Shown: positions 31,349 to 52,940 of the stretch, in pieces
Numbering within the stretch: the stretch's first letter is position 1
Layout: each line of letters starts with the position of its first letter
Source: an uncultured Bradymonadales bacterium
Lineage (GTDB): Bacteria > Myxococcota_A > Bradymonadia > Bradymonadales > Bradymonadaceae
Assembly (NCBI GenBank): GCA_964600555.1
Contig: CAZRLK010000003.1
Span: 4,854-68,853 of the forward strand
Reading direction: 5' to 3'
DNA: 64,000 bases
The notes under the pieces: model-generated
Told to the model about the DNA's origin: nothing
What the model saw: the letters and a program-made list of their open reading frames with translations, nothing else
Databases searched by the model: none
Program-made: the position numbers and the translations under genes

Positions 31349-31374
31349 CGTCTCGCAGCCGAAAAGGGGAGGGG

Positions 31375-31977
31375 TCAGCGGAGCATCTCGAGGGCGCGAC
31401 GCAGAAGCGGCTCGACGCCGTCGGCTCCCTCGATCTCTCCGTCGAGTTCGTCGATGACTCCGTCGATTGTCTCGCGGTCGTAGCCGAAGTTGCCGAGGGC
31501 CGATCGCAGGTTGCGCAGGCGCTCGGAGTCGGCGGCGCCGTCGCCGTCGGCGGGCGGCGCGAGCTGGTCGAACTCGAGATCGTCGAGCGAATCCTTCAAA
31601 TCGAGGATCAGCCGCTGGGCGGTCTTCTCGCCGATGCCCTTGACGTCTTTGAAGGCGTCGGTGTCGTTCGAGCGCACGCCCTGGACGATTTCGGGCGGAC
31701 GCATCTCGGAGACGATCCGGAGGGCGGTCTTGGGGCCGATGCCCGAGACGGAGGTCAGCCGCTCGAACAGCCGCCGCTCGGAGCGGTCCTTGAAGCCGTA
31801 CAGGTCGATGGCGTCGTCGCGGACGTTGGTGTGGATGTACAGCGTCACCGCGCCGTCGTCGTCGAGGCGTCCGCTGAGACCGGCGGGGACGTGTACCTCG
31901 TAGCCGACGCCGTCGACGTCAACGAGCACGCGGTCGAGCGAGAGGGTCTCGAGTTGTCCGGTGAGTCGTCCGATCAT
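31375..31977 (-). CDS. ruvA: Holliday junction DNA helicase subunit RuvA
   Basis: MIGRLTGQL...VDVDGVGYEV N-terminus, SVSGIGPKTALRI and VKGIGEKTAQRLILDL HhH motifs. Confidence 0.9.
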   Translation of the reverse strand: MIGRLTGQLETLSLDRVLVDVDGVGYEVHVPAGLSGRLDDDGAVTLYIHTNVRDDAIDLYGFKDRSERRLFERLTSVSGIGPKTALRIVSEMRPPEIVQGVRSNDTDAFKDVKGIGEKTAQRLILDLKDSLDDLEFDQLAPPADGDGAADSERLRNLRSALGNFGYDRETIDGVIDELDGEIEGADGVEPLLRRALEMLR

Positions 31978-31983
31978 GGTCGG

Positions 31984-32469
31984 CTACCGCATCTTGGCCG
32001 GGACGTTGGCGTACTGACAATGACAGATCGCGATTGCGAGGGCGTCGGCGGCGTCCTCCGAGAGGTCGCCCTCGAGGTCGAGGCGCATCTTGACCATCCG
32101 CTGGATTTGCGACTTGTCGGCGCGCCCGTGGCCGGCGACGGTCTTTTTGACGCGGGCCGGCGGGTAGTCGTGCAGCGGCACCTCGACGTGGCGAATCGCC
32201 AGGACCGCGACGCCGCGGGCGTGCCCGAGCTTGATGGTCGACTTCGAGTTGTAGGCGGTGAAGATCGCTTCGACCGCCGCCGCGTCGGGGTCGAACTGCT
32301 CGAGGATCTGCGAGACCCCGTCGTACAAGATCGGGAGCCGGTCGTCGAGCGAGGAGGCGCCGGTGGCGTTGATGCGCCCGCTGGCGACATACTCGGTCTC
32401 GCGGTCTCGCCGGGTGACGAGACCGTAGCCGGTGTAGCGCGATCCCGGATCGATGCCGAGCACGAGCAT
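31984..32469 (-). CDS. ruvC: Crossover junction endodeoxyribonuclease RuvC
   Basis: MLVLGIDPGSRYTGYG N-terminus, DAADALAIAICH C-terminal motif. Confidence 0.9.
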   Translation of the reverse strand: MLVLGIDPGSRYTGYGLVTRRDRETEYVASGRINATGASSLDDRLPILYDGVSQILEQFDPDAAAVEAIFTAYNSKSTIKLGHARGVAVLAIRHVEVPLHDYPPARVKKTVAGHGRADKSQIQRMVKMRLDLEGDLSEDAADALAIAICHCQYANVPAKMR

Positions 32470-32755: not shown

Positions 32756-32839
32756 GAAGTTCGATAAATGTGAAATTCTTGTTGAAACGCGGAAACGATT
32801 CCGTAAAAATACGTGGCGAACCGAAGTTCGGTAAATGTG
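32756..32839 (+). promoter_or_regulatory. 17-bp direct repeat GAAGTTCG(A/G)TAAATGTG x2 upstream of the RCC1 lipoprotein gene
   Basis: Copies at 32756-32772 and 32823-32839 (16 of 17 identical). The second copy ends 36 nt before the ATG at 32876. A third GTAAATG core occurs at about 32561. Confidence 0.4.
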
Positions 32840-32875
32840 CGAGACAGGTTGGAATATTCCTCAGCGGTGCGGCCC

Positions 32876-34840
32876 ATGTATACAACAGTGACCAAAGCAG
32901 CCAGTTATCTGCTCGTTCCGTTCGCCCTGGGTGCTCTGATCGTCGGTTGCGGGCCCGACGAGCCGCCCGAGGACGACGAGCAACCCGTGATCGACGTCGG
33001 CACCGACGTCGAAGAACCGGAGGATGCGGGGACGGACGCCGAGCCGGACACCCGGCCGGACACGGGGCCGGACGCCGAACCGGATACCTGCGAGCCGATG
33101 AGCTGCGAGGAGGCCGGGGTGCAGTGCGGCGAAGTCGACGACGGGTGTGGCGGGACGCTCGATTGCGGCGGCTGCGAGGGCGATGCGACCTGCGGGGAGA
33201 TCGCGCCCAACATGTGCAACTGCGCGCCGGAGAGCGACGAGGAATTCTGCGAGCGCCACGACAAGACCTGCGGGCGGTTCACCGCCGAAGACAACTGCGG
33301 GTTCGAACGCACCGCGACCTGCGGATCCTGCGGCGAAAACGAGGAATGCCAGTCGGACAACACGTGCGGGTGCGTCGAAAAGACGGACGTGACGCTGTGC
33401 AGCGAAAACGACCTCAACTGCGGCGAGGCGACCGTCGAGGGGCGCTGCAGCGAGGAGGTCGAAGTGACCTGCGGGCAGTGCACCGACCAGGGGGGCGACA
33501 TCTGCGTCGACAACGCCTGTGTCTGCGAGCCGTTCACCTGTGACGAAGTTCACGACCAGTGTGGAATCTACCCGGACGGATGCGGCGGCCAGATCACGTG
33601 TGAAGGCGGGTGCAGCGACACGCTGCTGGCCACCGGAGGTTACCACACCTGCTTTCAATCCGCCTCCTCCGACCAGCTCGAGTGCTGGGGGTGGAACAAG
33701 TACGGTCAGGTGGGGACGGGCTCGTCCAGCACGTCGGATTTCAATACGCCCCAGTCCGTGACCAGCCGATTCGACGATCTGTATTCGGTGACGGCCGGAG
33801 AGGATTTCACCTGCGTCGTCGACGGAACGGAAGCCAAATGCTGGGGGGCGAATTACGACTCGCAGGCCCTCGGCCGGGAGAACGACCCGTTCGGAAACGA
33901 GCTGAGAGAGGTGCTGACGCCGCGCAGTCCGGATGTGCCGGGAACCGGCATCAGCCAGATCAACGCCGGGGTCAACCACACGTGTGCGCTCAACACGGCC
34001 GGGGAAGTGTACTGCTGGGGGAGCAACTCGATTCTCGATGCCGACGACGGGGGCGGGGTCCTGGTGCCTGGCCCGGCAAATCCGGGGCAGTTTGACAATT
34101 ATTCGGTCGAGCCGACGCAATACGAATTCGGGCCGACCGGCGAAGCCCTGAGCGTGGAGGCCGGTTTGTGGCACTCGTGCGGTGAAGCAACCGACGGATC
34201 GCTGTGGTGCTGGGGCGCGAACTTCTTCGGGGCGATCGGAGAGGACGAGTACTTCTACGGGCGAGACGGCATTCTGTACACTCCGCCGGTGAAAGTCCCG
34301 GGCTTCGAGAACGGATTCGTGCAGGTCGCCGCCGGTGGACTCGACCAGGCCAGAGGGGAAGACCGCGGGTATTACGCGAACGACTTCAGTTGTGCCATCG
34401 ACCGCAACAACGCCGCCAAGTGTTGGGGCTCGGACGCGTTCCGCGGGGAACTCGGTGACGGGTCGGATCCGGAGCACGAGCATCCGAACCGCACACAGCC
34501 CGAGCCGGTCGAGGTCATCGGGCTCGACGGCGACGTCCTCGACCTCGCGCTGGGCGGAGCGCACGGGTGCGCGATCCAGAACAGCGAACTGTGGTGCTGG
34601 GGCGGCAACGAGTACGGCCAGATCGGGAACGGGAAATCGGGCGAGGGCGAGCAGGAGAACGTCCCGGTCGAGGTCACGATGCCCGACGACAAGGAGCCGG
34701 TGAATGTCGAGGCGGGCTTTTACCACACCTGTGCCGTCCTCGAGACCGACGAGCTGGCCTGCTGGGGGCGCAACTCCGACGGTCAGCTCGGCGACGGAAC
34801 CTACGAGATGCGCACGACGCCGAAAATCGTCTATCCCTGA
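32876..34840 (+). CDS. RCC1-repeat (beta-propeller) lipoprotein with N-terminal Cys-rich region
   Basis: ATG at 32876 giving MYTTVTKAASYLLVPFALGALIVGCGPD (lipobox). About 200 aa of Cys-rich modules (CGEVDDGCGGTLDCGGCEGDATCG...). Six or more RCC1 blades (YHTCFQS..LECWGWNKYGQVGTG, HTCALNTAGEVYCWGSN, HGCAIQNSELWCWGGNEYGQIGNG, YHTCAVLETDELACWGRNSDGQLGDG). Confidence 0.85.
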   Translation: MYTTVTKAASYLLVPFALGALIVGCGPDEPPEDDEQPVIDVGTDVEEPEDAGTDAEPDTRPDTGPDAEPDTCEPMSCEEAGVQCGEVDDGCGGTLDCGGCEGDATCGEIAPNMCNCAPESDEEFCERHDKTCGRFTAEDNCGFERTATCGSCGENEECQSDNTCGCVEKTDVTLCSENDLNCGEATVEGRCSEEVEVTCGQCTDQGGDICVDNACVCEPFTCDEVHDQCGIYPDGCGGQITCEGGCSDTLLATGGYHTCFQSASSDQLECWGWNKYGQVGTGSSSTSDFNTPQSVTSRFDDLYSVTAGEDFTCVVDGTEAKCWGANYDSQALGRENDPFGNELREVLTPRSPDVPGTGISQINAGVNHTCALNTAGEVYCWGSNSILDADDGGGVLVPGPANPGQFDNYSVEPTQYEFGPTGEALSVEAGLWHSCGEATDGSLWCWGANFFGAIGEDEYFYGRDGILYTPPVKVPGFENGFVQVAAGGLDQARGEDRGYYANDFSCAIDRNNAAKCWGSDAFRGELGDGSDPEHEHPNRTQPEPVEVIGLDGDVLDLALGGAHGCAIQNSELWCWGGNEYGQIGNGKSGEGEQENVPVEVTMPDDKEPVNVEAGFYHTCAVLETDELACWGRNSDGQLGDGTYEMRTTPKIVYP

Positions 34841-34979
34841 ACGAACGACGGCCCGGAGCGTCCGCTCGTCGCGGGCGTCGTCGGCCCGGACTCTACCACC
34901 CCGCGAGAAGCGGGTCGCAAGCGATACGCTCGTTGGATGACCGAGGTTGAGAATGTTGACGACTGCAGGAGAGCGAAGC

Positions 34980-37900
34980 ATGAGTGCCAGGATTCCTCGA
35001 TGGACGTATCGGGCCGTATTGAGCGGATGGATGCTCGTCGGTCTCGTCGCACTGGCGGCCTGCGGGCAGGACAACCCGTCCGGGACGGACCCGTGCGCGG
35101 AGACGACCTGCCAGTTCGGCGTCTGCAACAGCGATGCGGGCGGGGCGTGTACCAACCCCGAGACGTGTCGGGAGAGCAGCGAGTGTCTGCCGGGCTACGA
35201 GTGCGGGCCGGATGGTTCGTGCGTCGCCGCGAGCAGTTGCAGCTCCGACGGCGACTGCGAGTCGGGCGTCTGCGAGAGCGGAGCGTGCGTCAACCCGGAG
35301 ACCTGCGGGAGCGACGAAGAGTGTCTGCCGCGTACCTACTGCGCGGCCGACGGCACCTGCCAGCCCGACCCGTGCAACAACACCGAGTGCGAGCGGGGCA
35401 CCTGCGAGCGGGGCACCGGCGAGTGTGTCGAAGCCGAGTCGTGCACCGAGGAGACCGAGTACCGCGATTGCCTCTCCGACCAGCAGTGCATCGACGGGAC
35501 CTGCCAGACCGAAGAGGAGTTTTGCGACAGCCTCACCTGCGACCCGGGCGTCTGCAGCTTCGAGGAGCAGGGATGCGTCGAGCCCGACGAGTGTGAGAGC
35601 GACGAGGATTGCTTCGAGGGGAATCGCTGCAACGACATGAACCGCTGCGTCGAGAACCCCTGCGAGCAGGGCGATGTCGAGTGCGAGGGTGACGGCGTCT
35701 GCGACCCGGCGTCCGGGATGTGCGAGAACGCCGAGACCTGCACGTCGACCTCGGATTGCACGAACTCGCCGAAACACATCTGCGTGCAGGGGACCTGCCG
35801 GCTCGAAGCCAGTGCGTGCGGGGATGCCGAAGGGGAGGGCGGCTGTCCCGGCAATCAGGTCTGTCAGTACAGCGAAGAAGGCCTGCGCGCCTCGTGCATC
35901 GAGCCGGAGGATTGCGACACCTCGATCGACTGTCAGGAGAGCCGCCAGTGCAACGGCCGCAACTGCGTCGCGCCGTCGAGCTGTCGGGCGGACCGCTTCG
36001 AGGACAACGACACGGCGGAGAACGCGACCGACTTTCCGTCCGTCTCGATGGACAACGCGCTCACAGCATCGCTGTGTCCGGACGACACCGACGTGTACAC
36101 CTTCTCGACAACCGACCTGGTCGACGAATCGGCGACGGGGACTCTGCTGGTCGAGTTTCACCTGCCGCGGGCCGACGTCGGGCTCGGGGCGCTGGAAGCG
36201 AGCCTGAACGGGCCGGACGGCGGGGAGGTCGCATCCGGGTCGCTCGAGGCGAATGTCGACGAGGACCACCTGCGCCTGGAGGCGGAGCTGACGGAGTCGA
36301 GCCACGGCGAGTACACGATCGAGGTCGCGGCCGGCGCGTCGATGAATACGGCGGGGCTCGACTACGACCTGTCGGTCAACGTCGCCACCCAGGGAGTTGT
36401 CGAGGCGTGTGGGGACGCCGAACCTCTCGAGGTCGGTGAATTGGTCAGCGGGAACACGAACGACGGCGGCTCGAGTGGGCTGGAGTTGTCCTGCGCGCCG
36501 GACGCCGACGAGATGAACGAAAAGATCTACGCCCTCCAGCTCGACTCGCCACAGGAGCTTCACTTCGAGGCAGAGCCGAAATTCAGCGACGGGGACGTCT
36601 CGCTGGCGCTCCGGAGCCGCTGTACGGAGCCGGCGACCGAGTCGGCGTGTGTCGAATCGGCGGGCACCCACGAGGCCGAGACGCTGACGACGGTGCTCGG
36701 CGCCGGGACTCACTACGTCGTCGTCGAAACTCGTGACGCGGATGCGAGCGGGGCGTTCACCCTGCAGGCCGAGCATCTCAACGACAAGCGGTGCACGAGC
36801 CGAGACGACTACTGCAGCGGCTCGGTCACCTCGAACAAGTGTATCAACGACGGCGGGCGCTTCGAACAGCTCTCCTGCGATCTCGGCTGCAACCCCTCGA
36901 CCGGTCGATGCTACCCGCCGACGGGGAACTACTGCGAGGAAGTTACGACGATCACCGAGAACGCCTCGCGCGGATTCGATCTGCGGGAGTTTACCGACAG
37001 CTTCGACCCGGCGCCGGGCAGTTGCCTGGGCGACGACCCGCGAAGTGGCGGACCGGATCGTGTCTACGAGGTGGAAATCCCGGCCGACCAGGCCGTCCAG
37101 GTGACGGCGAACTACGAGCGAGAAGTCCAGGGGTCGTTGTACCTGGCGGAGTCGTGTGAGGAGCTGAGTGGAAGCTGCGAGAGCGGCGCGCAGGACTCGC
37201 GTGAAGAAGAGCCGTACGTCGAGCGGCTGACCTACTCGAACATGTCCGAGGACACCGAGACCCGCTACGTGGTCGTCGACTCCGAGGCAAACGAAAATCT
37301 GGCACCGGTGACCGTCAACTTCGAGTATCTGGACATCACCTGCGAGCCGGGTGTCCACCAGTGCGGCGACCAGACCGGCAACCAGCAGGTCTGCAACGAG
37401 TACGGGACCGCCTTCGAGATGTCCGACGAGTGTGGCGAGTGGCCGTGCCAGACCGGCGACGGCTCCAGCGCCTGCCGGCGGGCCGACGGTTGCTCGGACG
37501 TCCCGAACATCACCGATCAGGTGACCCCGGACGGCGGCAACCAGTACACGCTTTTGTGGGGCGACTACGACAGCAGCTTCGAATCCGACGACACCTGCGG
37601 GGGGAGTGCCGGCATCGACAGCTCGGAGACGGCCGGCAACGACGCGGTCTTCGAGATCGACGTGGCGGCCGGCGAGGTGCTGACCGCCTCCGCCGAGGGC
37701 AACGGCAACTACTCGCTGTACGTCAAGGAGTCGACCGAATCGCCGGCGACCTGCGGGTCGCTCGCCGACGAGTGTGTCGCGGCGGACAATCGGGACGGCG
37801 GGACGAGCGCCGAGATCGGGCAGTACTTCGACGAGGACAAGACGGTCTATCTGGTGTTGGATACGGAGAACGGCCAGGCGCCGGACGGGGCGTATCTGAA

Positions 37901-38981
37901 CGTCGACGTGGCACCGTCGATCTGCACGCCGGAGAATGTTGTCTGCGGGTCGAATGGAAACGTCCAGTACTGCGAGCAGCCGGGACTGAGCCAGAAGGCC
38001 TTCGCGTGTGACTCGAATGGCTGCTCGAGTGGCGTTTGCAACAGCAAGAATGCGGAGCACTGCTATGACCCCGACAATATCACGACGGACGTAGAGTCGG
38101 GGACGTTCAGTACCAGTGAGTTGTGGACGGACTTCGACAACGACTACGTCGGGAGTGGCTGTGGAAATATCGGAACCTCGGAGTCTGGCGGGCCGGAGTC
38201 GGTGTATCGCGTGGATCTTGAGGCAACCCAGACGGACGCGAAGCGATTGAGCGCGTCGCTGTCCGGTGATTCCGAGGACCATGCACTTTACGTCACTGAT
38301 GAGGCGAGCTGTGGGGCGGATCTTTCCGGTGCTGCCTGTCTGGCGTCGGCAACGGCGAGCGACGGAGCAACGGCGGACGTGACCTACACGAGTGGGACGA
38401 GCCCGGAAACCGTATACCTGGTGGCAGAAGGGTCCGATACGTCCGGCGAGGAGTACACCCTGGAAGCGAGCACGGAGTCTGTGTGTGCGTTGGGGACGGT
38501 CACGTGCAGCAGTGGGGGTGACATGGAATATTGCCCGCTGGGCTCGACGAGTCGCGAAACTGCCTCCTGTGAGGGTTGTTGTTCCGACGGGCTCGGCGGT
38601 GGATCCGACGTGAGTCGCTCGGTTCCCGCCGGCGGTACGATTACCGAGTCGGTGGATCTCGGGGCATGTCCGTCTGGCTCGGTCAGCCAGGTGCTGGTGG
38701 GCGTGCGTATGCCCGAGACCTTCCACATTGAAATTGAACTGCAGATTACGAGTCCGAGTGGCACGAATTTGACGCTGATGGAAGGGTCGGGTTCGCGAGG
38801 GAGTGGCTTCGGATATGGTATTGACGGAGTGTTTCCTCTCGGTGAATACCATTCCGCGGATTCGCTCGATCAACTTCAAGGCGAACCGGCCGCGGGAACG
38901 TGGACACTCACGGTCAACGAAGTTGGCGGATTTACATCCTATCCGTTCGAAGGATGGCACGTATCCGTTGCCTGCGACTGA
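34980..38981 (+). CDS. Giant Cys-rich modular lipoprotein, paralog A (1333 aa): Cys-knot array + PPC-like modules + C-terminal proprotein-convertase P-domain
   Basis: ATG at 34980 after CAGGAG (an in-frame ATG lies 9 codons upstream at 34953). Lipobox LVGLVALAACGQD. CAETTCQFGVCN... Cys modules. FEDNDTAENATDF...LCPDDTDVYTF (PPC-type signature). C-terminus ...IELQITSPSGTNLTLMEG...GEPAAGTWTLTVNEVGG...GWHVSVACD (P-domain-like). Confidence 0.8.
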   Translation: MSARIPRWTYRAVLSGWMLVGLVALAACGQDNPSGTDPCAETTCQFGVCNSDAGGACTNPETCRESSECLPGYECGPDGSCVAASSCSSDGDCESGVCESGACVNPETCGSDEECLPRTYCAADGTCQPDPCNNTECERGTCERGTGECVEAESCTEETEYRDCLSDQQCIDGTCQTEEEFCDSLTCDPGVCSFEEQGCVEPDECESDEDCFEGNRCNDMNRCVENPCEQGDVECEGDGVCDPASGMCENAETCTSTSDCTNSPKHICVQGTCRLEASACGDAEGEGGCPGNQVCQYSEEGLRASCIEPEDCDTSIDCQESRQCNGRNCVAPSSCRADRFEDNDTAENATDFPSVSMDNALTASLCPDDTDVYTFSTTDLVDESATGTLLVEFHLPRADVGLGALEASLNGPDGGEVASGSLEANVDEDHLRLEAELTESSHGEYTIEVAAGASMNTAGLDYDLSVNVATQGVVEACGDAEPLEVGELVSGNTNDGGSSGLELSCAPDADEMNEKIYALQLDSPQELHFEAEPKFSDGDVSLALRSRCTEPATESACVESAGTHEAETLTTVLGAGTHYVVVETRDADASGAFTLQAEHLNDKRCTSRDDYCSGSVTSNKCINDGGRFEQLSCDLGCNPSTGRCYPPTGNYCEEVTTITENASRGFDLREFTDSFDPAPGSCLGDDPRSGGPDRVYEVEIPADQAVQVTANYEREVQGSLYLAESCEELSGSCESGAQDSREEEPYVERLTYSNMSEDTETRYVVVDSEANENLAPVTVNFEYLDITCEPGVHQCGDQTGNQQVCNEYGTAFEMSDECGEWPCQTGDGSSACRRADGCSDVPNITDQVTPDGGNQYTLLWGDYDSSFESDDTCGGSAGIDSSETAGNDAVFEIDVAAGEVLTASAEGNGNYSLYVKESTESPATCGSLADECVAADNRDGGTSAEIGQYFDEDKTVYLVLDTENGQAPDGAYLNVDVAPSICTPENVVCGSNGNVQYCEQPGLSQKAFACDSNGCSSGVCNSKNAEHCYDPDNITTDVESGTFSTSELWTDFDNDYVGSGCGNIGTSESGGPESVYRVDLEATQTDAKRLSASLSGDSEDHALYVTDEASCGADLSGAACLASATASDGATADVTYTSGTSPETVYLVAEGSDTSGEEYTLEASTESVCALGTVTCSSGGDMEYCPLGSTSRETASCEGCCSDGLGGGSDVSRSVPAGGTITESVDLGACPSGSVSQVLVGVRMPETFHIEIELQITSPSGTNLTLMEGSGSRGSGFGYGIDGVFPLGEYHSADSLDQLQGEPAAGTWTLTVNEVGGFTSYPFEGWHVSVACD

Positions 38982-39137
38982 GCGAGCGTGCAGGACCTCG
39001 GGCCATGATCTGCGGTTCATGGGGGCGGCAGCAGTGAGGGACTGCAGGGACGGAAAGAAGACAAGATACGAGGCGTGATCGACAGGCGCAGAGGATTCAT
39101 GAAGGACGCAATGATGGAGACGTCAGGAGTCGAACCG

Positions 39138-42100
39138 ATGAGTACAGCAGTCTGGAAGCGAGGCGTGAAGGCGTTCCTGTTGGGAGCGTTTCTGGTCGGT
39201 CTAATCGGGGCCTCGGGGTGTGGATCCGACGACGACCAGCAACAGCAGTCGCTGTGCGAGGATACGACCTGTCAGTTCGGCACCTGCTCGCCGGAGACCG
39301 GGGAATGTGTCAACGAGTCGGGCTGTCAGGAGGATACCGACTGTCTGCCGGGCTATTCGTGCGGGGAGGGGAACACCTGCGAGGCGGAGCAGACCTGCAC
39401 GACGGACGCCGAATGCGAGATCGGCCAGTGCGACGGCGAGGCGTGCGTCAATCCCGATAGTTGCGAGAGCGACTCGGACTGCCACGAGCGCACCTACTGC
39501 GGGTCGGACGGGACCTGCCAGCCGGACCCGTGCAACCGGACCGACTGCCGGCGGGGTGTCTGCGAGCGGGGAGCCGGGGAGTGCGTCTCGGCGGAGAGCT
39601 GCACGCCGGACAACGAGCTGTACAAATGTGTGGCCGGAGAGCGATGTGCGAACGAGGCGTGTCATCCGCTCGAGGATGCGCGCATCGAGTTTTGCGACTC
39701 CATCACCTGTGACCGCGGTATCTGTAGCTTCGAGGAGCGAAGCTGTGTGAACGCGCCGGACTGCGGCGGCGAGGATGCGAACTGCCTGGAGGGATACTTC
39801 TGCAACGACTCGAATACCTGCCAGCGCAACCTCTGCGACCGCGACGACGTCGACTGCGACGGCGGCGGGGTGTGCGACCCGGTGACCGGCCAGTGCGAAA
39901 ACGCCGAGGAGTGCGAGTCGCACGACGAGTGTCGCTCGACGCCGGAGCACGTCTGCCTGGACGGCACGTGTACGCTGGCGGCCTCGGCGTGCGGGGACGG
40001 GACCGGCGAAGGGGGATGCCCGGGTGACCAGACCTGCGAGATCGATCGCGAGGAGATGACGGCGAGCTGTGTCGAGACGGACGGATGCGACACCTCGATC
40101 GATTGTACCGGCGACCGACAGTGCAACGGAAACACCTGCATCGACCCCGTCACGTGCCGCGAGGACGCCTTCGAGCCAAACGACTCGGCCGAAGAGGCGA
40201 CGAGTTTCTCGAACGCGGCGAAGGACGGGATCTTCAGCGGTTCGTTGTGCAGCGACGATACGGACGTGGTGACCTTCGATACGACCGAGTGGACCGACGA
40301 GTCGACGCAGGCGACGCTGCAGTTGGCGCTCACGATTCCCGAGCGCGACGTCGGGCTCGGCGACGTGCAGGTCGCGGTGACGAATCCGATGGGGACGGAG
40401 GTCGCGAACGAGACGCTCCCGGCGAGTGCCGGCGAGCGGACTCTGACGATCACCTCCTCGCTGGCGGCCGAAGATCACGGAAGCTACACGGTCGAGCTGA
40501 CGCCCGGCGATTCGATGAAAGGCGCCGGCGTCACCTACGAGATGACCGTCGACCTGCTCGACGGTGCGGAGCGGCAGGCATGCGAGAACGCCGAGGAGAT
40601 CGAAGTGCAGCAGCGCCTCTCGGGGACGACGGTCGATTCGACGTCGTCGAGGATCGGCTCGTCGTGTACGCCGCCGGACGGAGAGGACGGGGCCTCGAAC
40701 GAGAAGATCTATCGGCTCGACCTCGAGACCTCGCAGCGGCTCTCGATCGAGGCGACGCCGGAGGTTCCGGCGCCCCCGGAAGACGACGAGGACGACGAGT
40801 GGTCGCCGCCCGAGTCGACGGACCTGTCGGTTTCGGTGCGACGCCGCTGTGCGGAGTCGGCGACGGAGACGGCCTGCGTCGACGATCAGCCGGCGGGCAG
40901 CCCGGAGACGATCGTCCGGAACTTCAGTGCCGGGACGCACTTCATCGTGGTACAGACGCCCGCCGGGACGGACGGCCGGGCCTTCGATTTGACCGTCGAC
41001 CGGATGGCCGAGACGCAGTGTACGGACCGGGCCAACCACTGCTCCGACAGCGACACCTCGCAGGTCTGCGACGTCGAGGGCGGCGGGTTCACGGAGGTCG
41101 AATGTGACGAGGGGTGTCACCCGTCGACCGGCCGGTGCTTTCCGCCGGAGGGCAACGTCTGCCAGGACGCCCCGAGTGTCTCGTGGAGAGATTCGTCGAA
41201 CACCCGCTCGTTCGATCTCCTGCAGTATCGGAACAACTACGAGCTCGGCACCGACAGTTGCATCGATGCCGACGATCCGCGGACCGGCGGGCCGGACAAA
41301 GCCTACACGATCGAACTCGATCCCGAGCAGTCGGTCAACGTGAGCGCGGAGTTCGAAAACGATGTCGAGGGCGTGTTGTACGTCGCCGAGGAGTGCGGGG
41401 CGGCCGGCGACTCTTGCATCACCAGCGCCCAGGGGACGACCGAGAGTCCGTACCGCGAATCGCTCGACTACTCGAACACCTCGAGTCAGACCGAGACGGT
41501 GACGCTGGTCGTCGACACGGCGGCCGGGCAAAACTACGGGAACGTACAGCTGGAGTTCGAGTATCCGGAGGTCGTCTGCCAGCCCGGCACGAAAGTCTGT
41601 ACGCTCGACGACACGGTCGACACCTGCGGGGAGTACGGTCGGGAGTACAATCAGACCGACACCTGCGGGGTCGGCTGTACGTCGGGGACGTGTGACGGAG
41701 AGACCTGCGGCCAGCCGCAAGATATCACACAGGAGGTTCGTCGGGAGGGTGGGACGCGGATCTTCGCCTCGTGGGACGATTTCAACAACGACTACAACAG
41801 CACGTGCGGAAATCTCGGAGAGGGTGCGACCAACGGAGGCGACGCCGTCTTCGCGATCGACATGCAGGCCGACGACGTGCTGGAGGCGACGCTCAGCGGC
41901 GACGATACCGACGTCGGGATGTACCTGACGTCGAGTTGCAGTTCGACCGACAGTTGTCTCGCTTCCGTGCAGACGAACGGTCTGTCGGGGAGCCTCTCAT
42001 ATCACGCCGACACCCAGGAAACGGTGTATTTGCACGCCGACGCCGATGGAGGATCGTCCGGAGAATTCATGCTCGAGGTCAATACCAGCGAGTACGTGTG

Positions 42101-43196
42101 TACGCCGAACACCGTCGATGGATGCACGGACGGTGGAGACGTCGCCTACTGCTCGTCAAGTGGTGCGCAGAAGCTGACCTATGATTGCGGAACGGGCGGC
42201 TGCACGGACGCAATGTGTGACGATCGTGGATCGGACTATTGCTTCGACGCCGAAAACATCACTCAGGAGGCGCGTGGAGCTGACGGCGTGAACCGGGACC
42301 CGAACTGGGCGGCGCACGACAACAATCTGTCGTTCGACGCCTGTGGCATCTCCCGGGCCGACTCCCAGGGTCCCGATGCCGTCTACAAGGTCGACCTGGA
42401 GGGCGACGAGACACTGAGAGCGTCGCTGGAGGGTCAGTTGAACGGTCCGGATTCGAACCTGCGGTTGATAGAAGGGTGTATGGAGCCGGGTTCTTCGTGC
42501 AGAGAGGGTGTCATGGATAGCCAGGAGGCGTCTTTGACGTACGAAGCGTCGAGTGCGGAGACGCTGTATCTGGTCGGTGACTTCAACGACAGCGATCCGG
42601 GTAGCAACGAGTTCGAGGCGACGGTGCGGACCCGCTGCTCGACGACCGGTGCGACCAGTTGCGGGACGCGCGACCGTGTCCAGCACTGTACGAGTGAAGG
42701 GCTGGAGACGCCGTTTGGGTGTACGGACTGCTGCGGATCCGCCGGTGGAGGATTCGACGACGTCGGGATTGACCCCATTCCGATCGCCGACCCCGAATGG
42801 GATGAAAACACGAACCCGGATCCCGATCCGTCGACCGGCTTGACGCGGACGATCAACGTCCAGGGCTGTAGCGGGGACGTCTCCGATGTGCAGGTCGGGC
42901 CGGACATCGGCGACGGCAGTTTCCAGACCCAGTACCGACACAATCTGGTGATGGCCCTCGAGAGTCCGTCGGGCACGCTCGTCGACCTGGAGGACAAAGA
43001 AGACGAGTTCGAAGACTTCGATCCGTTCGGCCGGCTGAACTTTTACCCGCGGGACTACGAGCCCGAGGATTCGCTGGATGCCTTCAACGGCGAGAATGCG
43101 AACGGCGACTGGAACCTCCACGTGGCGCGGACCGGAGACGACGAGACGCTTCAGGGGCCGTTTCACTCCTGGTCGCTTCTCGTCGCGTGCGACTGA
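39138..43196 (+). CDS. Giant Cys-rich modular lipoprotein, paralog B (1352 aa), same architecture with C-terminal P-domain
   Basis: ATG at 39138 after CAGGAG (upstream in-frame ATG at 39111). Lipobox LVGLIGASGCGSD. CEDTTCQFGTCS... colinear with paralog A. FEPNDSAEEATSF...LCSDDTDVVTF. C-terminus NLVMALESPSGTLVDLED...GENANGDWNLHVARTGDD...SWSLLVACD. Confidence 0.8.
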   Translation: MSTAVWKRGVKAFLLGAFLVGLIGASGCGSDDDQQQQSLCEDTTCQFGTCSPETGECVNESGCQEDTDCLPGYSCGEGNTCEAEQTCTTDAECEIGQCDGEACVNPDSCESDSDCHERTYCGSDGTCQPDPCNRTDCRRGVCERGAGECVSAESCTPDNELYKCVAGERCANEACHPLEDARIEFCDSITCDRGICSFEERSCVNAPDCGGEDANCLEGYFCNDSNTCQRNLCDRDDVDCDGGGVCDPVTGQCENAEECESHDECRSTPEHVCLDGTCTLAASACGDGTGEGGCPGDQTCEIDREEMTASCVETDGCDTSIDCTGDRQCNGNTCIDPVTCREDAFEPNDSAEEATSFSNAAKDGIFSGSLCSDDTDVVTFDTTEWTDESTQATLQLALTIPERDVGLGDVQVAVTNPMGTEVANETLPASAGERTLTITSSLAAEDHGSYTVELTPGDSMKGAGVTYEMTVDLLDGAERQACENAEEIEVQQRLSGTTVDSTSSRIGSSCTPPDGEDGASNEKIYRLDLETSQRLSIEATPEVPAPPEDDEDDEWSPPESTDLSVSVRRRCAESATETACVDDQPAGSPETIVRNFSAGTHFIVVQTPAGTDGRAFDLTVDRMAETQCTDRANHCSDSDTSQVCDVEGGGFTEVECDEGCHPSTGRCFPPEGNVCQDAPSVSWRDSSNTRSFDLLQYRNNYELGTDSCIDADDPRTGGPDKAYTIELDPEQSVNVSAEFENDVEGVLYVAEECGAAGDSCITSAQGTTESPYRESLDYSNTSSQTETVTLVVDTAAGQNYGNVQLEFEYPEVVCQPGTKVCTLDDTVDTCGEYGREYNQTDTCGVGCTSGTCDGETCGQPQDITQEVRREGGTRIFASWDDFNNDYNSTCGNLGEGATNGGDAVFAIDMQADDVLEATLSGDDTDVGMYLTSSCSSTDSCLASVQTNGLSGSLSYHADTQETVYLHADADGGSSGEFMLEVNTSEYVCTPNTVDGCTDGGDVAYCSSSGAQKLTYDCGTGGCTDAMCDDRGSDYCFDAENITQEARGADGVNRDPNWAAHDNNLSFDACGISRADSQGPDAVYKVDLEGDETLRASLEGQLNGPDSNLRLIEGCMEPGSSCREGVMDSQEASLTYEASSAETLYLVGDFNDSDPGSNEFEATVRTRCSTTGATSCGTRDRVQHCTSEGLETPFGCTDCCGSAGGGFDDVGIDPIPIADPEWDENTNPDPDPSTGLTRTINVQGCSGDVSDVQVGPDIGDGSFQTQYRHNLVMALESPSGTLVDLEDKEDEFEDFDPFGRLNFYPRDYEPEDSLDAFNGENANGDWNLHVARTGDDETLQGPFHSWSLLVACD

Positions 43197-43333
43197 GCAG
43201 GCCCGACGTCCCGTCGCCCGACCGGCGGCGGGAGTGGGAGTGAACGAACAGCAGGACAGAGAGACGACGATCAGGTAGGTGTGTGGAGACTCGCACGGAA
43301 GAACCAATGTTGGTGACGTCAGGAGTACAAAAG

Positions 43334-45889
43334 ATGACCGACTCGATCTCGCGGATGCAACGCTTGGCTCTGCTCGCAGGGTTGGTGGCCCTGGGGGCGG
43401 GGATGTTCGTCGGATGCGGTGGAGACGACGATCCGCCGCCTCCCTGTGAGAACACGACCTGCCAGTTCGGCACCTGCTCGAACGAGGCCGACGGGGAGTG
43501 TGTGAACATGGATTCGTGCAGCGAGCACGACGACTGCGTGCCGGGGTATGTCTGCGGGGCGGACAACACCTGCGAGGCGCAGACGACGTGTGAGTCGGAC
43601 TCGGACTGCGAGCAGGGCATCTGCGGGGACGACGGGGTGTGCGTCAATCCCGACAGTTGCGAGCAGGACTCGGAGTGTGTCGACCGGACGTACTGCGGGG
43701 AGGAGGGCACCTGCCGACCCGACCCGTGCAACGAGGTGAACTGCGAGCGCGGAAGCTGCGAGCGGGGCACCGGCCAGTGCGTCTCCTCGGAGACGTGCAC
43801 GCCGGAGACGCAGGCGCTCGACTGCGTGCCGGGCGAGAAATGCATCGATGCGGGCTGCGAGGAGCAGGAGGCGTACTGCGAGACGATGACCTGTGAGCGG
43901 GGCGTCTGCAGCTTCGAGCAGGAGGGCTGTGTGAACGCCCGAGAATGCTCCGGCGACGAGGAGTGTGTCGAGGGGTATTTCTGCAACGACTCGGGGCAAT
44001 GCCAGGTGAATGTCTGCGAGCGCGACAACGTCACCTGCGATCCGTGTGAGCGGGCGACCGGAGGTTGTCCCGAGCGGGACGAATGTGAATCGAGCGCGGA
44101 CTGCATCAACGATCCAAACCACCTTTGCGTCGAGGGCACCTGCGAACTCGAATCGGTGGCCTGTGGGGACTCGGGCGGGGACGGGGGCTGCCCGGGCAAC
44201 CGCACCTGCAGCTACGACGCCGACAGCCTCGAGGCGACCTGCGAAGAGCCGGATGCCTGCGAGACCTCGATCGACTGCGACGACGGGCGTCGCTGCAACG
44301 GCGAAAGCTGCGTCGACACCATGGCCTGCCAGAACGACGCCTTCGAGCCAAACGAGGGGACCGACGAGGCGGTCGACTTCACGGCGTTTGCCGCGGACAA
44401 CTCGCTCGAGGCGGCGCTGTGCGAGGGCGACACCGACGTGTACGGCTTCGAGACGACGGAGTTCGTCGACGAGGAGTACGAGGGGACGATTCGCGCCGAG
44501 ATCGACGTGCCGCAACGAGACGTCGGGCTCGGGGATGTGGAGTTGAGGCTACTCGACTCCGAGGGGAGCGAAGTGACCAGTGCGACGCTTCCCGCCGGCG
44601 ACACGAGCGGCCACCTGGCGGTCTCGACGGGGGTGACCTCGGGTGAGCACGGCGAATACAGCGTCGAGGTGTCGGCGGGGGACGAGATGAGTTCCGGCGG
44701 CCTCGGCTACACGCTGTCGGTGAATCTGCTGGAGGGGACGGTCGCGGATGCATGCCGGGACGCCGAGAGCGTCGAGATCAACCAGCAGGTCTCGGGGACG
44801 ACCGAGGATGCTCCCTCCTCCGAGATCGGCTCGAGTTGCACGTCGGTCGACAACGCTTCGAACGAAAAGATCTTCCGGCTCGACCTCGAGCAGCCCCAGG
44901 AGATCGACATCGAGGTCGTGCCGCAGTTGAGCAGCGCCGACCTGGCGGTCTCCCTGCGAAAACGGTGCACGGAGCCGTCGACGGAGACGGCGTGCGTCGA
45001 ACAGGCCGACGACGACGGAGCGGAGACGCTCAGTCGGGTGGTCGGCGCCGGCTCGCACTACATCGTCGTGCAGGGCGCGGAGGCGGATACCGGTGGACCG
45101 TTTCAGATGACCGTCGAGCGGGGCTTTACGACCGAATGCGCGCCAGGCGAGGCGTACTGCAGCGGTTCGGAGACGGTGCGTCGATGCACCGACGACGGCG
45201 GCGACTACGAAGAGGTCTCGTGTTCGACGACGAGCTGTGACGTCTCGCACGGGGAGTGTCGGCCGGCCGACAACGATCTGTGTCTCAATGCCTCGTCGAT
45301 CAGTGGGGATACGACCGAGACGGTCGCCCTCGCGGATTTCTCGAACAACTACGAATTCGACGCGGACGACTACGACGAGTTCGACGAAACCGGGTGTCTC
45401 GCGGACGGCGAGCTCGACGACACCAAAACCGACGGTCCCGACCGCAGCTACGAAGTCGAAATCCCGGCGAACACCGAAATGGAGGTCATCACGACCTATC
45501 CGACGGCGGTCGAAGGTTCGGTGTATCTCGCTTCGGAGTGCCGCCGCGACCTGTCGGAAGCCTGCGTGGCGGGGGCGCGGGGCACGGACTACGACTTCGC
45601 CGCGAACAAGGAGCAGCTCGTTTACGCGAACGACTCCAGCGAGGCGCAGACGTACTATCTGGTCGTCGACGTCGGAGCCGACGAGGGCTACGAAGAGGGT
45701 GAAACCGAAGTGCAGTTCACGTTCACCGAGCAGGAGGGAGGCGAGGGCGACACGGGCGTCGATGCCGGCATGGACGCCGGCGGAACGGACGACGCCGGCG
45801 GAACGGACGACGCGGGCATGGACGCGGACGCCGGGATGACAGATGTCGGGTCGACGGACGCCGGACTGGATGCCGCCGACGGCAACTGA
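43334..45889 (+). CDS. Giant Cys-rich modular lipoprotein, paralog C (851 aa), shorter; lacks the P-domain and ends in an Asp/Ala/Gly-rich tail
   Basis: ATG at 43334 after CAGGAG (upstream in-frame ATG at 43307). Lipobox LGAGMFVGCGGDD. CENTTCQFGTCS... colinear with A and B through the first three PPC-like modules. FEPNEGTDEAVDF...LCEGDTDVYGF. Tail DTGVDAGMDAGGTDDAGGTDDAGMDADAGMTDVGSTDAGLDAADGN. Confidence 0.8.
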   Translation: MTDSISRMQRLALLAGLVALGAGMFVGCGGDDDPPPPCENTTCQFGTCSNEADGECVNMDSCSEHDDCVPGYVCGADNTCEAQTTCESDSDCEQGICGDDGVCVNPDSCEQDSECVDRTYCGEEGTCRPDPCNEVNCERGSCERGTGQCVSSETCTPETQALDCVPGEKCIDAGCEEQEAYCETMTCERGVCSFEQEGCVNARECSGDEECVEGYFCNDSGQCQVNVCERDNVTCDPCERATGGCPERDECESSADCINDPNHLCVEGTCELESVACGDSGGDGGCPGNRTCSYDADSLEATCEEPDACETSIDCDDGRRCNGESCVDTMACQNDAFEPNEGTDEAVDFTAFAADNSLEAALCEGDTDVYGFETTEFVDEEYEGTIRAEIDVPQRDVGLGDVELRLLDSEGSEVTSATLPAGDTSGHLAVSTGVTSGEHGEYSVEVSAGDEMSSGGLGYTLSVNLLEGTVADACRDAESVEINQQVSGTTEDAPSSEIGSSCTSVDNASNEKIFRLDLEQPQEIDIEVVPQLSSADLAVSLRKRCTEPSTETACVEQADDDGAETLSRVVGAGSHYIVVQGAEADTGGPFQMTVERGFTTECAPGEAYCSGSETVRRCTDDGGDYEEVSCSTTSCDVSHGECRPADNDLCLNASSISGDTTETVALADFSNNYEFDADDYDEFDETGCLADGELDDTKTDGPDRSYEVEIPANTEMEVITTYPTAVEGSVYLASECRRDLSEACVAGARGTDYDFAANKEQLVYANDSSEAQTYYLVVDVGADEGYEEGETEVQFTFTEQEGGEGDTGVDAGMDAGGTDDAGGTDDAGMDADAGMTDVGSTDAGLDAADGN

Positions 45890-45921: not shown

Positions 45922-45967
45922 AAAAAACCCGGCCCGGACTCGCTCGTAGAGTCCGGGCCGGGTTTTT
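45922..45967. terminator. Strong bidirectional rho-independent terminator between paralog C (+) and yebC (-)
   Basis: AAAAAACCCGGCCCGGACTC-GCTCGTA-GAGTCCGGGCCGGGTTTTT: a perfect 15-bp stem and 7-nt loop, with an A-run on one side and a T-run on the other. Confidence 0.9.
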
Positions 45968-46002: not shown

Positions 46003-46794
46003 TCAGCCGCGGACCTCCTCGTCGAGGTCGCCCGGCATCTCGCAGTTGGCGTAGGCGTCCTGGACGTCGTCGTGGTCGTCGAGTTGGCGGTAAAACTCGA
46101 GGAACTTCTCGGATTCGTCCCGGTTCAGTTCGACGGTCTGAGTCGGGAGACGGACCGGCTTGGAGCGTTTGATTTCGTAGCCTTCCTCGCGGAGGTGCTC
46201 GTCGACGTCGGCGAGTTCCTCGAAGCCGGTGAAAATCTGGTAGACCTCGATGTCGTCCGGATTTTTCTTCTCGCTCTCGGGGGTGAACATCTGCTCGTCG
46301 ATCTCCTGGGCGCCCAGCTCGATGATCTCGAGCTGGAAGGTCTCCTCGTCGTCGATCGAGCCCTTGTCGACCAGGATCTCGCCTTTTCGGTCGAACTGCC
46401 AGGCGACACAGCCGTCCTCGCCGAGGTTCCCGTCGTGGGTGTCGAACAGGTGGCGAAGCTCGGAGACGGTTCGGTTGGTATTGTCGGTCAGCGCCTCGAC
46501 GAAGACGGCGACGCCGGCCGGGCCGTACCCCTCGTAGGTGTGGCGCTCGTAGTCGACGCCCTCGAGTTCACCGGTGCCGCGCTTGATGGCGCGTTCGATG
46601 TTCTCTTTGGGCATGTCGGCTTCGTGCGCCCGCTCGATGGCCATCCGCAGATCGGGGTTGTACTCCGGATCACCGCCGCCTTCGCGCGCCGCGACGGTGA
46701 TCTCGCGGATAAGCTTGTTGAAGATCTTGGCGCGGCGGCGGTCGCGCTTTTTTTTCTTGTGTTTGATCTTGCTCCACTTGTTGTGACCCGACAT
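46003..46794 (-). CDS. yebC: YebC/PmpR family DNA-binding transcriptional regulator
   Basis: MSGHNKWSKIKHKKKKRDRRRAKIFNKLIREITVAAREGGGDPEYNPDLR is the characteristic YebC N-terminus. ATG at 46794. Confidence 0.9.
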   Translation of the reverse strand: MSGHNKWSKIKHKKKKRDRRRAKIFNKLIREITVAAREGGGDPEYNPDLRMAIERAHEADMPKENIERAIKRGTGELEGVDYERHTYEGYGPAGVAVFVEALTDNTNRTVSELRHLFDTHDGNLGEDGCVAWQFDRKGEILVDKGSIDDEETFQLEIIELGAQEIDEQMFTPESEKKNPDDIEVYQIFTGFEELADVDEHLREEGYEIKRSKPVRLPTQTVELNRDESEKFLEFYRQLDDHDDVQDAYANCEMPGDLDEEVRG

Positions 46795-51150: not shown

Positions 51151-51350
51151 GAACCGATCGGCGGAGGGAAGGAACGAACTGCAGGTCGGAGTCATTGTAG
51201 CGGGGATCGCCCCGCGTCTGAAGTGCGGGGGCGCGCCGATCGCCTCGCACAGATCGTCGAACGGGCCGAGGGGAGCGCGTTGACACTCAGATCGCGGCAG
51301 CCTTACCATTCGGTGCGGTCTGCGCGCAGGTCTTCTCGGGGTACGGGAAC

Positions 51351-52751: not shown

Positions 52752-52777
52752 GGTGTGGCGGCCAGAGTTGCCACCGG

Positions 52778-52801
52778 CGGCAACCTCCGTTGCCGATTTT
52801 T
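52778..52801 (+). terminator. Rho-independent terminator after the kinase gene, with a competing upstream hairpin arm
   Basis: CGGCAAC-CTCC-GTTGCCG followed by ATTTTT. An identical GTTGCC arm at 52768-52773 can pair with the same GGCAAC segment. Confidence 0.6.
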
Positions 52802-52940
52802 CGAACAAGGTTCGACAGCCAGAGGGGCGCGAGGAAGGGCTTCGCCGGTTGAGCGGGCCCGGAATGTGATTTGCACACACAAATGGAGCGCGACAGCCCA
52901 TTCGATCCGCTCATCGCGCTTCCAAACCCCTTGCCTGCTC

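Follow-up and report, generated by a model that had tools for sequence, protein, structure and literature searches.

Three co-oriented genes (A, B and C), lying in tandem within the analysed stretch of DNA, a window of 64,000 nucleotides from an uncultured Bradymonadales bacterium, appear on balance to be old duplicates encoding non-catalytic, disulfide-rich envelope lipoproteins that serve as tethered, multivalent binding proteins of an adhesin-like kind. We infer surface exposure and a binding function for these proteins, as well as the kind of ligand. The initial annotation had described three tandem genes, whose coordinates and product lengths were reproduced from the ATG starts (Table 1). 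In each gene an AGGAG sequence is situated 8 nt before the ATG, inside a conserved stretch of ~30 nt, and the G+C-rich hairpin downstream of C is a probable bidirectional terminator that ends the array. Domain limits were drawn from the cysteine map together with an HMM of the repeated modules. Every module of A (M1 to M4) is followed by a Cys linker of ~45 aa, module M1 of B contains an acidic, Pro-rich insertion, and C is devoid of M3, M4 and the C-terminal P-domain. The AF2 model of C has a pLDDT of 85.9, with values below 50 in the tail.

Table 1. Features of the A-B-C array and its surroundings (nucleotide positions in the window; aa, residues of the product)
Feature	Position	Strand	Basis or remark
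Upstream gene, Cys-rich lipoprotein with RCC1 beta-propeller	32813-34840	+	Pfam RCC1, WD40_RLD
Gene A	34980-38981	+	ORF; ATG 34980; product 1333 aa
Gene B	39138-43196	+	ORF; ATG 39138; product 1352 aa
Gene C	43334-45889	+	ORF; ATG 43334; product 851 aa
AGGAG ribosome-binding sites	34967-34971 (A); 39125-39129 (B); 43321-43325 (C)	+	
Cys-repeat stalk	A 35091-35984; B 39249-40157; C 43442-44329	+	Cys spacing
EPND...DxD beta-sandwich	A 35985-36407; B 40158-40580; C 44330-44752	+	profile matches
Module M3 of B	41706-42101	+	representative PPC / collagen-binding-domain-like module, modelled
P-domain (PF01483)	A 38667-38978; B 42870-43193	+	Pfam, above gathering cut-off
G+C-rich hairpin between A-run and T-run	45925-45965	.	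between convergent genes C and yebC
Layout of A (aa)	lipobox Cys28; Cys stalk 38-335; EPND beta-sandwich 336-476; M1 477-605; M2 652-788; M3 838-982; M4 1028-1169; P-domain 1230-1333		
Layout of B (aa)	lipobox Cys28; stalk 38-340; EPND beta-sandwich 341-481; M1 482-628; M2 675-814; M3 857-988; M4 1035-1167; P-domain 1245-1352		
Layout of C (aa)	lipobox Cys28; stalk 37-332; EPND beta-sandwich 333-473; M1 474-602; linker; M2 650-800; acidic low-complexity tail 801-851		

By inspection, all three products begin with a signal peptide composed of a basic n-region and a hydrophobic core, followed by the lipobox that had been claimed for them (LAAC in A, ASGC in B and FVGC in C), which places the acceptor residue at Cys28. 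This cysteine is at least 90% conserved among 50 family members, and A, B and C are probably lipoproteins, lipidation being predicted from the lipobox. The proteins contain 93, 93 and 65 cysteines, respectively; the even number that remains besides Cys28 (92, 92 and 64) is consistent with all of them forming disulfides outside the cytoplasm. The tight N-terminal spacing of these residues that had been pointed out is borne out by 49 cysteines in ~300 aa, with gaps mostly of 4-6 residues, and the common start C-[AE]-[EDN]-T-T-C-Q-F-G-[VT]-C is present in each protein. In B, this region is composed of 12 units of ~23 aa with four cysteines per unit; in the model of C, it consists of short beta-hairpins with pLDDT mostly above 90. 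It probably acts as a stalk or spacer of rod-like shape. The stalk of B had no match in Pfam at E up to 10, and comparison with PDB sequences returned only spurious Gly/Ser-linker matches to scFv16. A 522-aa lipoprotein encoded elsewhere in the window (52755-54323) carries Dickkopf_N/DUF7107 repeats, which resemble the stalk in their C-x5-C spacing and in the D-x-D-C and G-x-x-C motifs, although their period comprises eight cysteines with CxxC, whereas that of the stalk comprises four without it. Kinship between the two was not upheld, as the BLAST score (40.8 bits) was not clearly above that of shuffles keeping the Cys positions (39.3 bits); a stalk-unit HMM, in which the units were badly split, was uninformative.

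The ~135-aa Cys-framed modules of the distal part are, by predicted fold and transitive homology, divergent beta-sandwiches of the PPC (pre-peptidase C-terminal) / collagen-binding-domain type. The landmarks originally listed for them (NEKIY/F, GGPDxxYxVE, GxDAVFxID and AGxHY/FxVV) are all present, and an HMM seeded solely with the ten modules of the window retrieved 254 copies in 50 homologues, indicating that the modules form one repeat family. The AF2 model of module M3 of B (pLDDT 90.5) has as its best PDB match in Foldseek the PPC domain of a Bacillus anthracis collagenase (5sv5; E 5e-5, TM 0.74 (target), rmsd 3.0), followed at ranks 2-12 mostly by collagen-binding domains of ColG and ColH, and the best match of the whole-C model is the tandem collagen-binding domain of ColG (5iku; E 5e-13). 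Sequence profiles agree weakly, with 2luw and 5sv5 among the top PDB matches of the module profile. The window modules themselves have no match to Pfam PPC (PF04151) at E up to 10; equivalent modules of three homologues exceed the cut-off of 25.9 bits (P0049, 80.8 bits; P0045, 46.4; P0019, 27.4), and these PPC-positive modules are also retrieved by the window-module HMM. The module profile reaches 12,011 representative clusters, PPC-positive proteins included, and single proteins hold as many as 23 modules; a large set of PPC-like modules evidently escapes present Pfam thresholds. The initial annotation had put the proteins down as a candidate undescribed system. That their parts are unrecognisable cannot be upheld, since the modules belong to a known type, by Foldseek and by Pfam matches in homologues, and Pfam detects a P-domain in A and B. 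The annotation's description of the proteins as rich in disulfides and jelly rolls stands as regards disulfides and beta-sandwiches, the repeated modules being of the PPC / collagen-binding type by predicted fold. In common with the modules of A, B and C, the ColG, ColH (s3) and 5sv5 domains of clostridial and Bacillus collagenases have a beta-sandwich fold, and s3a-s3b of ColG are likewise arranged in tandem. However, collagenases carry one or two such domains, whereas members of the A/B/C family carry up to 14 with no protease attached and, unlike in the collagenases, each module is bracketed by conserved cysteines and leads into a mini-domain with seven Cys. PPC domains are known as binding modules: they bind collagen in collagenases (PMC6168687), and the PPC fragment of Myxococcus xanthus FibA is located in the matrix and the spore coat (PMC3236237). 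No specific link to phage receptor-binding proteins emerged, as Foldseek against viral structures aligned the whole-C model only to generic tandem beta-sandwiches (tail fibres, CUB) at TM ~0.1-0.2.

The first beta-sandwich, between the stalk and the modules, is the least securely PPC part of the three proteins. The FEPND...DTDV motif is confined to it, occurring once per protein, and this EPND...DxD pattern resembles the start of collagen-binding domains, a class that binds triple-helical collagen and whose Ca2+ site is formed by N-terminal E-x-N-D and D-x-D residues. It had previously been called a PPC-type module on the basis of the signature FE[PD]N[DE] ... LCxxDTDVxxF; the signature is confirmed, but the PPC identity is not, as the body of the domain fits Ig-like/filamin profiles better. 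In profile comparisons with the PDB, positions 6-44 align weakly with ColG collagen-binding domains (E 0.07-0.65) and positions 53-119 with Ig repeats of filamin-C (E 2e-7), whilst Pfam gives weak matches only, to Ig-like families and PPC. As a single sequence, the first 59 aa retrieved nothing relevant from the PDB. A common origin with the modules is not supported by hhalign, which aligned 41 columns of the two profiles at a probability of 12%.

A C-terminal P-domain, absent from the initial description, was detected in A (E 3e-7, 30.7 bits) and B (E 2e-9, 37.7 bits) above the cut-off of 21, and C has none. These ~105 aa match the proprotein-convertase P-domain (PF01483) known from kexin/furin-type proteases and bacterial subtilases, here without the S8 catalytic domain. 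The P-domain is the sole match in whole-protein and per-module scans of A, B and C with Pfam and NCBIfam, which found no catalytic domain and no peptidase family, S8 included, in keeping with the earlier statement that catalytic motifs are lacking. Amongst 117 domain-mapped family members, none has a catalytic domain, 115 leave no stretch of 90 aa or more unassigned and 12 possess the P-domain; the P-domain members examined all end in A-C-[DNQ]. Nor is there a characterised full-length homologue, named matches being either 'hypothetical' or named for their P-domain or PPC domain; an exact look-up of protein B yielded no record.

The three genes are clear paralogues, as had been proposed, with BLASTP scores of 839 bits for A/B (38% identity over the full length), 617 for B/C (43%) and 620 for A/C (44%). 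A related locus (L001) preserves the whole triplet in synteny, with all three genes intact; the orthologue of C there has 819 aa and the same short plan, and identity between orthologues (~60-70%) exceeds that between paralogues (35-50%). Divergence does rise towards the C-terminus, amino acid identity falling from 53% to 22-32% between paralogues and from 69% to 30-55% between orthologues. The N-terminal conservation claimed at the DNA level is real but modest (64-67% identity in the stalk versus 51-65% in later parts), and nothing points to recent gene conversion. The genes are under purifying selection: dN/dS between orthologues is 0.17-0.52 in all regions where it could be computed (dS 0.5-1.8, sometimes saturated). 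No region has dN/dS above 1, and hence there is no arms-race signature such as some receptors would be expected to display, although near-saturated dS weakens this test. Conservation of the triplet in a related genome, coupled with these ratios, indicates that the genes are old, functional duplicates. The full architecture has been seen only in Bradymonadales (Persicimonas, Lujinxingiaceae and Bradymonadaceae) and in metagenomic sequences, with module numbers from 0 to 14 and an optional P-domain among the 117 mapped members; a scan of a genome collection with a single peptide pattern found 5 loci only and is a poor census. The upstream RCC1 lipoprotein gene also adjoins the triplet in L001 and is absent from the other family loci examined. 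The RuvABC/RCC1/YebC context as a whole is shared only with this close relative, other loci having unrelated neighbours (MutL/LexA/Nuo and FGGY/AAT), and near the family loci examined neither a conserved partner nor a gene for secretion or predation was found. These differing neighbourhoods point to a gene family and not to the multi-gene 'system' that had been suggested.

In the adhesin-like model, A, B and C would be exported by Sec and then lipidated at Cys28, and the ~300-aa region of twelve 4-Cys units would hold the remainder of the protein off the membrane. The distal part would present the EPND-motif beta-sandwich and then a chain of PPC / collagen-binding-domain-like sandwiches, four in A and B and two in C, with small Cys-knot linkers between them and the P-domain as a cap in A and B. 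The ligand may be a polymer, either protein or glycan, that is carried by prey or kin cells or belongs to the matrix, and the three paralogues may differ in specificity or reach. The proteins may lie at the inner membrane, at the periplasmic face of the outer membrane or, as this model would have it, at the cell surface. The earlier suggestion of an adhesin or a target-recognition protein, put forward as speculation, is compatible with the predicted fold.

A different reading, possible though unlikely, is that A, B and C are structural components of the envelope or matrix, forming a coat, scaffold or S-layer-like assembly in which the sandwiches associate with each other or bind the cell's own exopolysaccharide. 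There is a precedent in Myxococcus xanthus, a member of the same phylum, in which the two PPC repeats of FibA (spore-coat Protein C) remain, without catalytic activity, as part of the matrix and coat, the PPC-repeat fragment accumulating in the matrix and the spore cuticula (PMC3236237). Unlike A, B and C, however, FibA is the precursor of an M4 metalloprotease; it has no more than two PPC repeats and lacks a Cys stalk. The composition of the three proteins is extremely acidic (D+E 19-23%, K+R 4-5%), as might suit a structural role, but this may merely mirror a halophilic proteome. Purifying selection over the whole length and a multi-copy family with housekeeping neighbours are also consistent with such a role; nevertheless, a lipid anchor and Cys-repeat spacer are more in keeping with a tethered receptor than with a lattice, and a range of 0-14 modules would be unusual in a lattice-forming protein.

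A function as accessory proteins that dock, stabilize or position secreted proteases, or offer them substrates while the cell feeds on lysed prey, is less probable again. PPC and P-domains are typical of secreted proteases (PMC3236237, PMC6168687), an association that keeps a protease-related role in consideration, and homologues go under the JGI name 'subtilisin-like proprotein convertase family protein'. In addition, an M6-peptidase-like gene (26529-28658) lies ~6 kb upstream of the array. Against this, no peptidase fusion occurs among the mapped family members, no peptidase is a conserved neighbour at the loci examined and few members possess a P-domain at all.

TraA of Myxococcus xanthus, the kin-recognition receptor of outer-membrane exchange, is characterized by a C-terminal MYXO-CTERM tag, a Myxococcus Cys-rich repeat and a PA14-like variable domain, none of which was found in A, B or C with NCBIfam and Pfam. 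It does share a design principle with them, a lipid anchor bearing a very Cys-rich stalk (~80 Cys in TraA) and a distal variable recognition domain, with lipidation at the terminal Cys (PMC10433427). It is improbable, however, that A, B and C are kin-recognition receptors of this sort, in which a variable domain at the far end of the lipid-anchored stalk would mediate homotypic recognition between cells. The 93 cysteines, the lipobox and the distal position of the most divergent parts would accord with it, as does the kin discrimination without T6SS reported for bradymonabacteria (PMC11509652). Yet the anchor is N-terminal, the opposite polarity to TraA, the distal part consists of PPC arrays, and the NCBIfam scan detected no sequence relation to TraA, assigning no family to A, B or C and matching no TraA-type model. 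Furthermore, no gene similar to TraB, the outer-membrane beta-barrel partner of TraA, is annotated next to the loci examined, and the orthologues are under purifying selection and not hypervariable. The last alternative, that protease-type accessory domains without a catalytic domain betray decaying protease-gene remnants, pseudogenes or non-functional ORFs, is effectively refuted by long intact ORFs with ribosome-binding sites, conservation of all Cys positions, an intact and constrained orthologous triplet and confident AF2 models.

No paper on this lipoprotein family was found, and it is probably best regarded as unstudied yet unexotic, being built from known binding-type domains. If A, B and C were ordinary matrix or coat components, their recognition would be of annotation value only. 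As binding proteins, their interest lies in the biology of the bradymonabacteria, whose predation is contact-dependent and prey-selective and in which adhesion to prey has been postulated, with no adhesin or recognition protein identified so far (PMC11509652). The family thus provides a concrete adhesin candidate that is, so far, lineage-restricted, multi-copy, enzyme-free and probably tethered by a lipid and a Cys-repeat spacer, with domains that bind insoluble polymers elsewhere, and it is amenable to testing in culturable relatives, e.g. through FIV42_19055 of Persicimonas caeni and the neighbouring gene with a product of 1122 aa. A bolder proposal, and a doubtful one at present, is that the family constitutes a Bradymonadia-specific recognition and adhesion toolkit for contact-dependent, prey-selective predation or for T6SS-independent kin discrimination. 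Were this the case, the number of paralogues and of modules (0-14) would set which cell surfaces are gripped and at what distance, and A, B and C would be three receptors with different targets.

The Cys-framed modules of ~135 aa that recur in A, B and C are divergent domains of the pre-peptidase C-terminal (PPC; PF04151) and collagen-binding-domain type. All ten window modules are mutually alignable, and an HMM seeded with nothing else detects 254 copies across the 50 family proteins, which have 2-10 apiece; a linker of ~45 aa with seven Cys follows every copy. None of the window's own modules reaches the Pfam threshold, and their placement in the PPC superfamily is based on profile and fold searches together with Pfam matches in homologues. 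Against PDB sequences, the weak top matches of the profile include a metalloprotease PPC (2luw, E 0.2) and the B. anthracis collagenase PPC (5sv5, E 0.58). The AF2 model of the third module of B (pLDDT 90.5, pTM 0.87) has 5sv5 as its best match (E 5e-5, target-normalised TM 0.74, rmsd 3.0), ranks 2-12 being mostly collagen-binding domains of ColG and ColH, and for the whole model of C the top PDB structure is 5iku, a tandem collagen-binding domain of ColG (E 5e-13). In the homologues, Pfam PPC matches lie within the equivalent modules and exceed the gathering score in P0049, P0045 and P0019. Run against 1.84 billion proteins at E up to 1e-3, the profile also retrieves 12,011 representative clusters, whose proteins include ones with as many as 23 modules and ones clearly Pfam PPC-positive. 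Three proteins from outside the window (P0084, P0088 and P0098, one of them from a Myxococcales MAG) are giants of 2700-3700 aa with 16-23 module copies but neither the Cys-repeat stalk nor the first beta-sandwich; reuse of the module in other architectures is therefore widespread. An insertion that is acidic and rich in proline, PEVPAPPEDDEDDEWSPPEST, interrupts the first module of B; it is absent from A, C and the orthologue in L001, a related metagenomic contig.

Each N-terminus comprises a basic and hydrophobic signal sequence ending in a lipobox at Cys28, a Cys at least 90% conserved among 50 family members. After a tether of ~10 aa follow 49 Cys within ~300 aa, arranged as twelve units of ~23 aa with four Cys each, mostly spaced by 4-6 residues. 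Without the lipid Cys, the totals are 92, 92 and 64 in A, B and C, even numbers as expected if each Cys is paired. An AlphaFold2 model of C, generated from an alignment of 50 family sequences (mean pLDDT 85.9, pTM 0.67), shows this region as short beta-hairpins, mostly with pLDDT >90, and it is treated here as a disulfide-ladder stalk. No relatives of the stalk were found in Pfam or among PDB sequences. A nearby lipoprotein made up of Cys repeats over nearly its whole length (8-Cys period, spacing 5,5,4,2,5,5,4,6) has similar Cys spacing; the comparison gave no clear sign of homology, the BLAST score against the stalk (40.8 bits) hardly exceeding the 39.3 of shuffles with unchanged Cys positions. 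The domain following the stalk, the EPND block, is confidently predicted to be a beta-sandwich, for which PPC and Ig topologies are both candidates. Searched against PDB sequences, a 17-sequence profile weakly resembles the N-terminal portion of the collagen-binding domains of ColG at positions 6-44 (E 0.07-0.65) and, more strongly, filamin-C Ig repeats at positions 53-119 (E 2e-7); Pfam gives only sub-threshold matches, to Ig-like MG2, Invasin_D3 and Big_1 and to PPC.

A and B terminate in a proprotein-convertase P-domain, above the Pfam cut-off, and C ends after its second module with an acidic low-complexity tail of 51 aa (pLDDT <50). This short form is old rather than a truncation artefact, because the orthologue in L001 has the same plan. 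Every P-domain member examined (A, B, P0002, P0003, P0004, P0011, P0014, P0017, P0019 and P0024) ends in A-C-[DNQ], whose Cys probably pairs with one at the start of the domain (C1244 and C1351 in B); a sorting tag looks unlikely, no hydrophobic segment following the last Cys. All three proteins are highly acidic (D+E 19-23%, K+R 4-5%), as would suit secreted proteins of a bacterium adapted to saline surroundings, since the homologues belong to saltern and hypersaline Persicimonas-like bacteria.

Features of the array and its surroundings in the window
Feature	Position	Strand	Remarks
Protease-like gene	26529-28658	plus	709 aa; partial Peptidase_M6 (immune inhibitor A) match, DUF4215 Cys repeat
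ruvBAC	30266-32469	minus	left border of four-gene plus-strand run
RCC1-propeller lipoprotein gene	32813-34840	plus	directly upstream of A, same orientation
A	34980-38981	plus	paralogue, 1333 aa
B	39138-43196	plus	paralogue, 1352 aa
C	43334-45889	plus	paralogue, 851 aa
EPND block	A 35985-36407; B 40158-40580; C 44330-44752	plus	FE[PD]N[DE]...LCxxDTDVxxF
Insertion in first module of B	40788-40850		aa ~551-571
A-C-[DNQ] ending	A 38970-38978; B 43185-43193	plus	C-terminal residues
yebC	46003-46794	minus	right border of four-gene plus-strand run
Thrombospondin type-3 protein gene	48961-51309	minus	782 aa; 14 (Ca2+-binding) repeats
Cys-repeat lipoprotein gene	52755-54323	plus	522 aa; Pfam Dickkopf_N E 2e-23, DUF7107 E 6e-26

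The initial annotation described three tandem modular lipoproteins, accurately, and its product sizes are borne out by the start codons, which are fixed by an AGGAG at -13 to -9 before each ATG, inside a stretch of ~30 nt conserved across all three genes. Window G+C is 63-72%. From the RCC1 gene to the end of C, the plus strand showed nothing resembling a terminator, so that co-transcription of the four genes is possible; 3' of C lies a G+C-rich hairpin between an A-run and a T-run. The RCC1 gene product has a Cys-rich N-terminal region with CGxxxDxCGGxxxCGxC-like motifs before its beta-propeller; its gene is kept at the same place in L001 and absent at other family loci. The thrombospondin type-3 protein is another large non-enzymatic secreted protein near the array, and the closest protease-like gene lies ~6 kb upstream.

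The paralogues share 38-44% identity across their full shared lengths (pairwise BLASTP, 617-839 bits). L001 has the same gene order (ruvBAC, RCC1, A', B', C', yebC, LMW phosphatase, PALP enzyme), and the window proteins are 60-70% identical to their positional counterparts there vs 35-50% to paralogues, which places the triplication before the split of the two genomes. Between orthologues the stalk is most conserved and the fourth module, last linker and P-domain least. Nei-Gojobori dN/dS is 0.17-0.52 in all regions with computable dS, which shows purifying selection; small diversifying patches would be compatible with this, dS being high. That the genes are pseudogene remnants is contradicted by the conserved triplet, these identities and these ratios, and is very improbable.

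A full-length search returned 49 clusters, unnamed, labelled 'hypothetical' or named after a P-domain or PPC domain, the named sources being Persicimonas, among them P. caeni FIV42_19055. Additional searches extended the family to larger proteins of up to ~2950 aa with 14 modules, to smaller ones of 465-756 aa, and to MAGs of Lujinxingiaceae and Bradymonadaceae and one labelled only 'Myxococcota bacterium'. Among 117 mapped proteins with both stalk and first beta-sandwich, modules number 0 to 14, the P-domain occurs in only 12, and no room for an enzyme domain was found; two have one unassigned stretch of ~130 aa apiece. The earlier statement of 'no recognisable enzymatic core' thus holds for enzymes but not for domains, given the PPC-type modules and the P-domain. 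At other loci, members stand alone or paired amid unrelated housekeeping genes (e.g. MutL/LexA/nuo; FGGY kinase/acyltransferase), and one MAG contig has three dispersed copies. Because no conserved partner gene was found across the family loci examined, this is a gene family rather than the 'system' first proposed.

No experimental work on any family member was found in the literature. The lipid anchor, disulfide-rich spacer, domains with polymer-binding relatives and absence of an enzyme domain together point to tethered, multivalent binding proteins: the anchor would hold the protein at the membrane, the stalk would serve as spacer and the distal domain chain would bind, its characterised relatives attaching to insoluble polymers. 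Collagen is the ligand of collagen-binding and PPC domains (PMC6168687), and the PPC fragment of FibA localises to matrix and spore coat (PMC3236237). A structural role of A, B and C in matrix or coat is unlikely, if the best placed of the alternatives, and docking of proteases as accessory proteins is less probable again. A TraA-like kin receptor is quite improbable: TraA follows the same logic, with a lipid anchor, a stalk rich in Cys and a distal domain (PMC10433427), but its defining sequence features are all absent here. For the tethered binders favoured here, prey or kin adhesion is an attractive candidate role because Bradymonabacteria kill by contact only, select their prey and discriminate kin without a T6SS (PMC11509652). 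The architecture is uncharacterised and lineage-restricted, its parts being known extracellular binding-type domains, and its value lies chiefly in a candidate adhesin family of a little-studied predator group.
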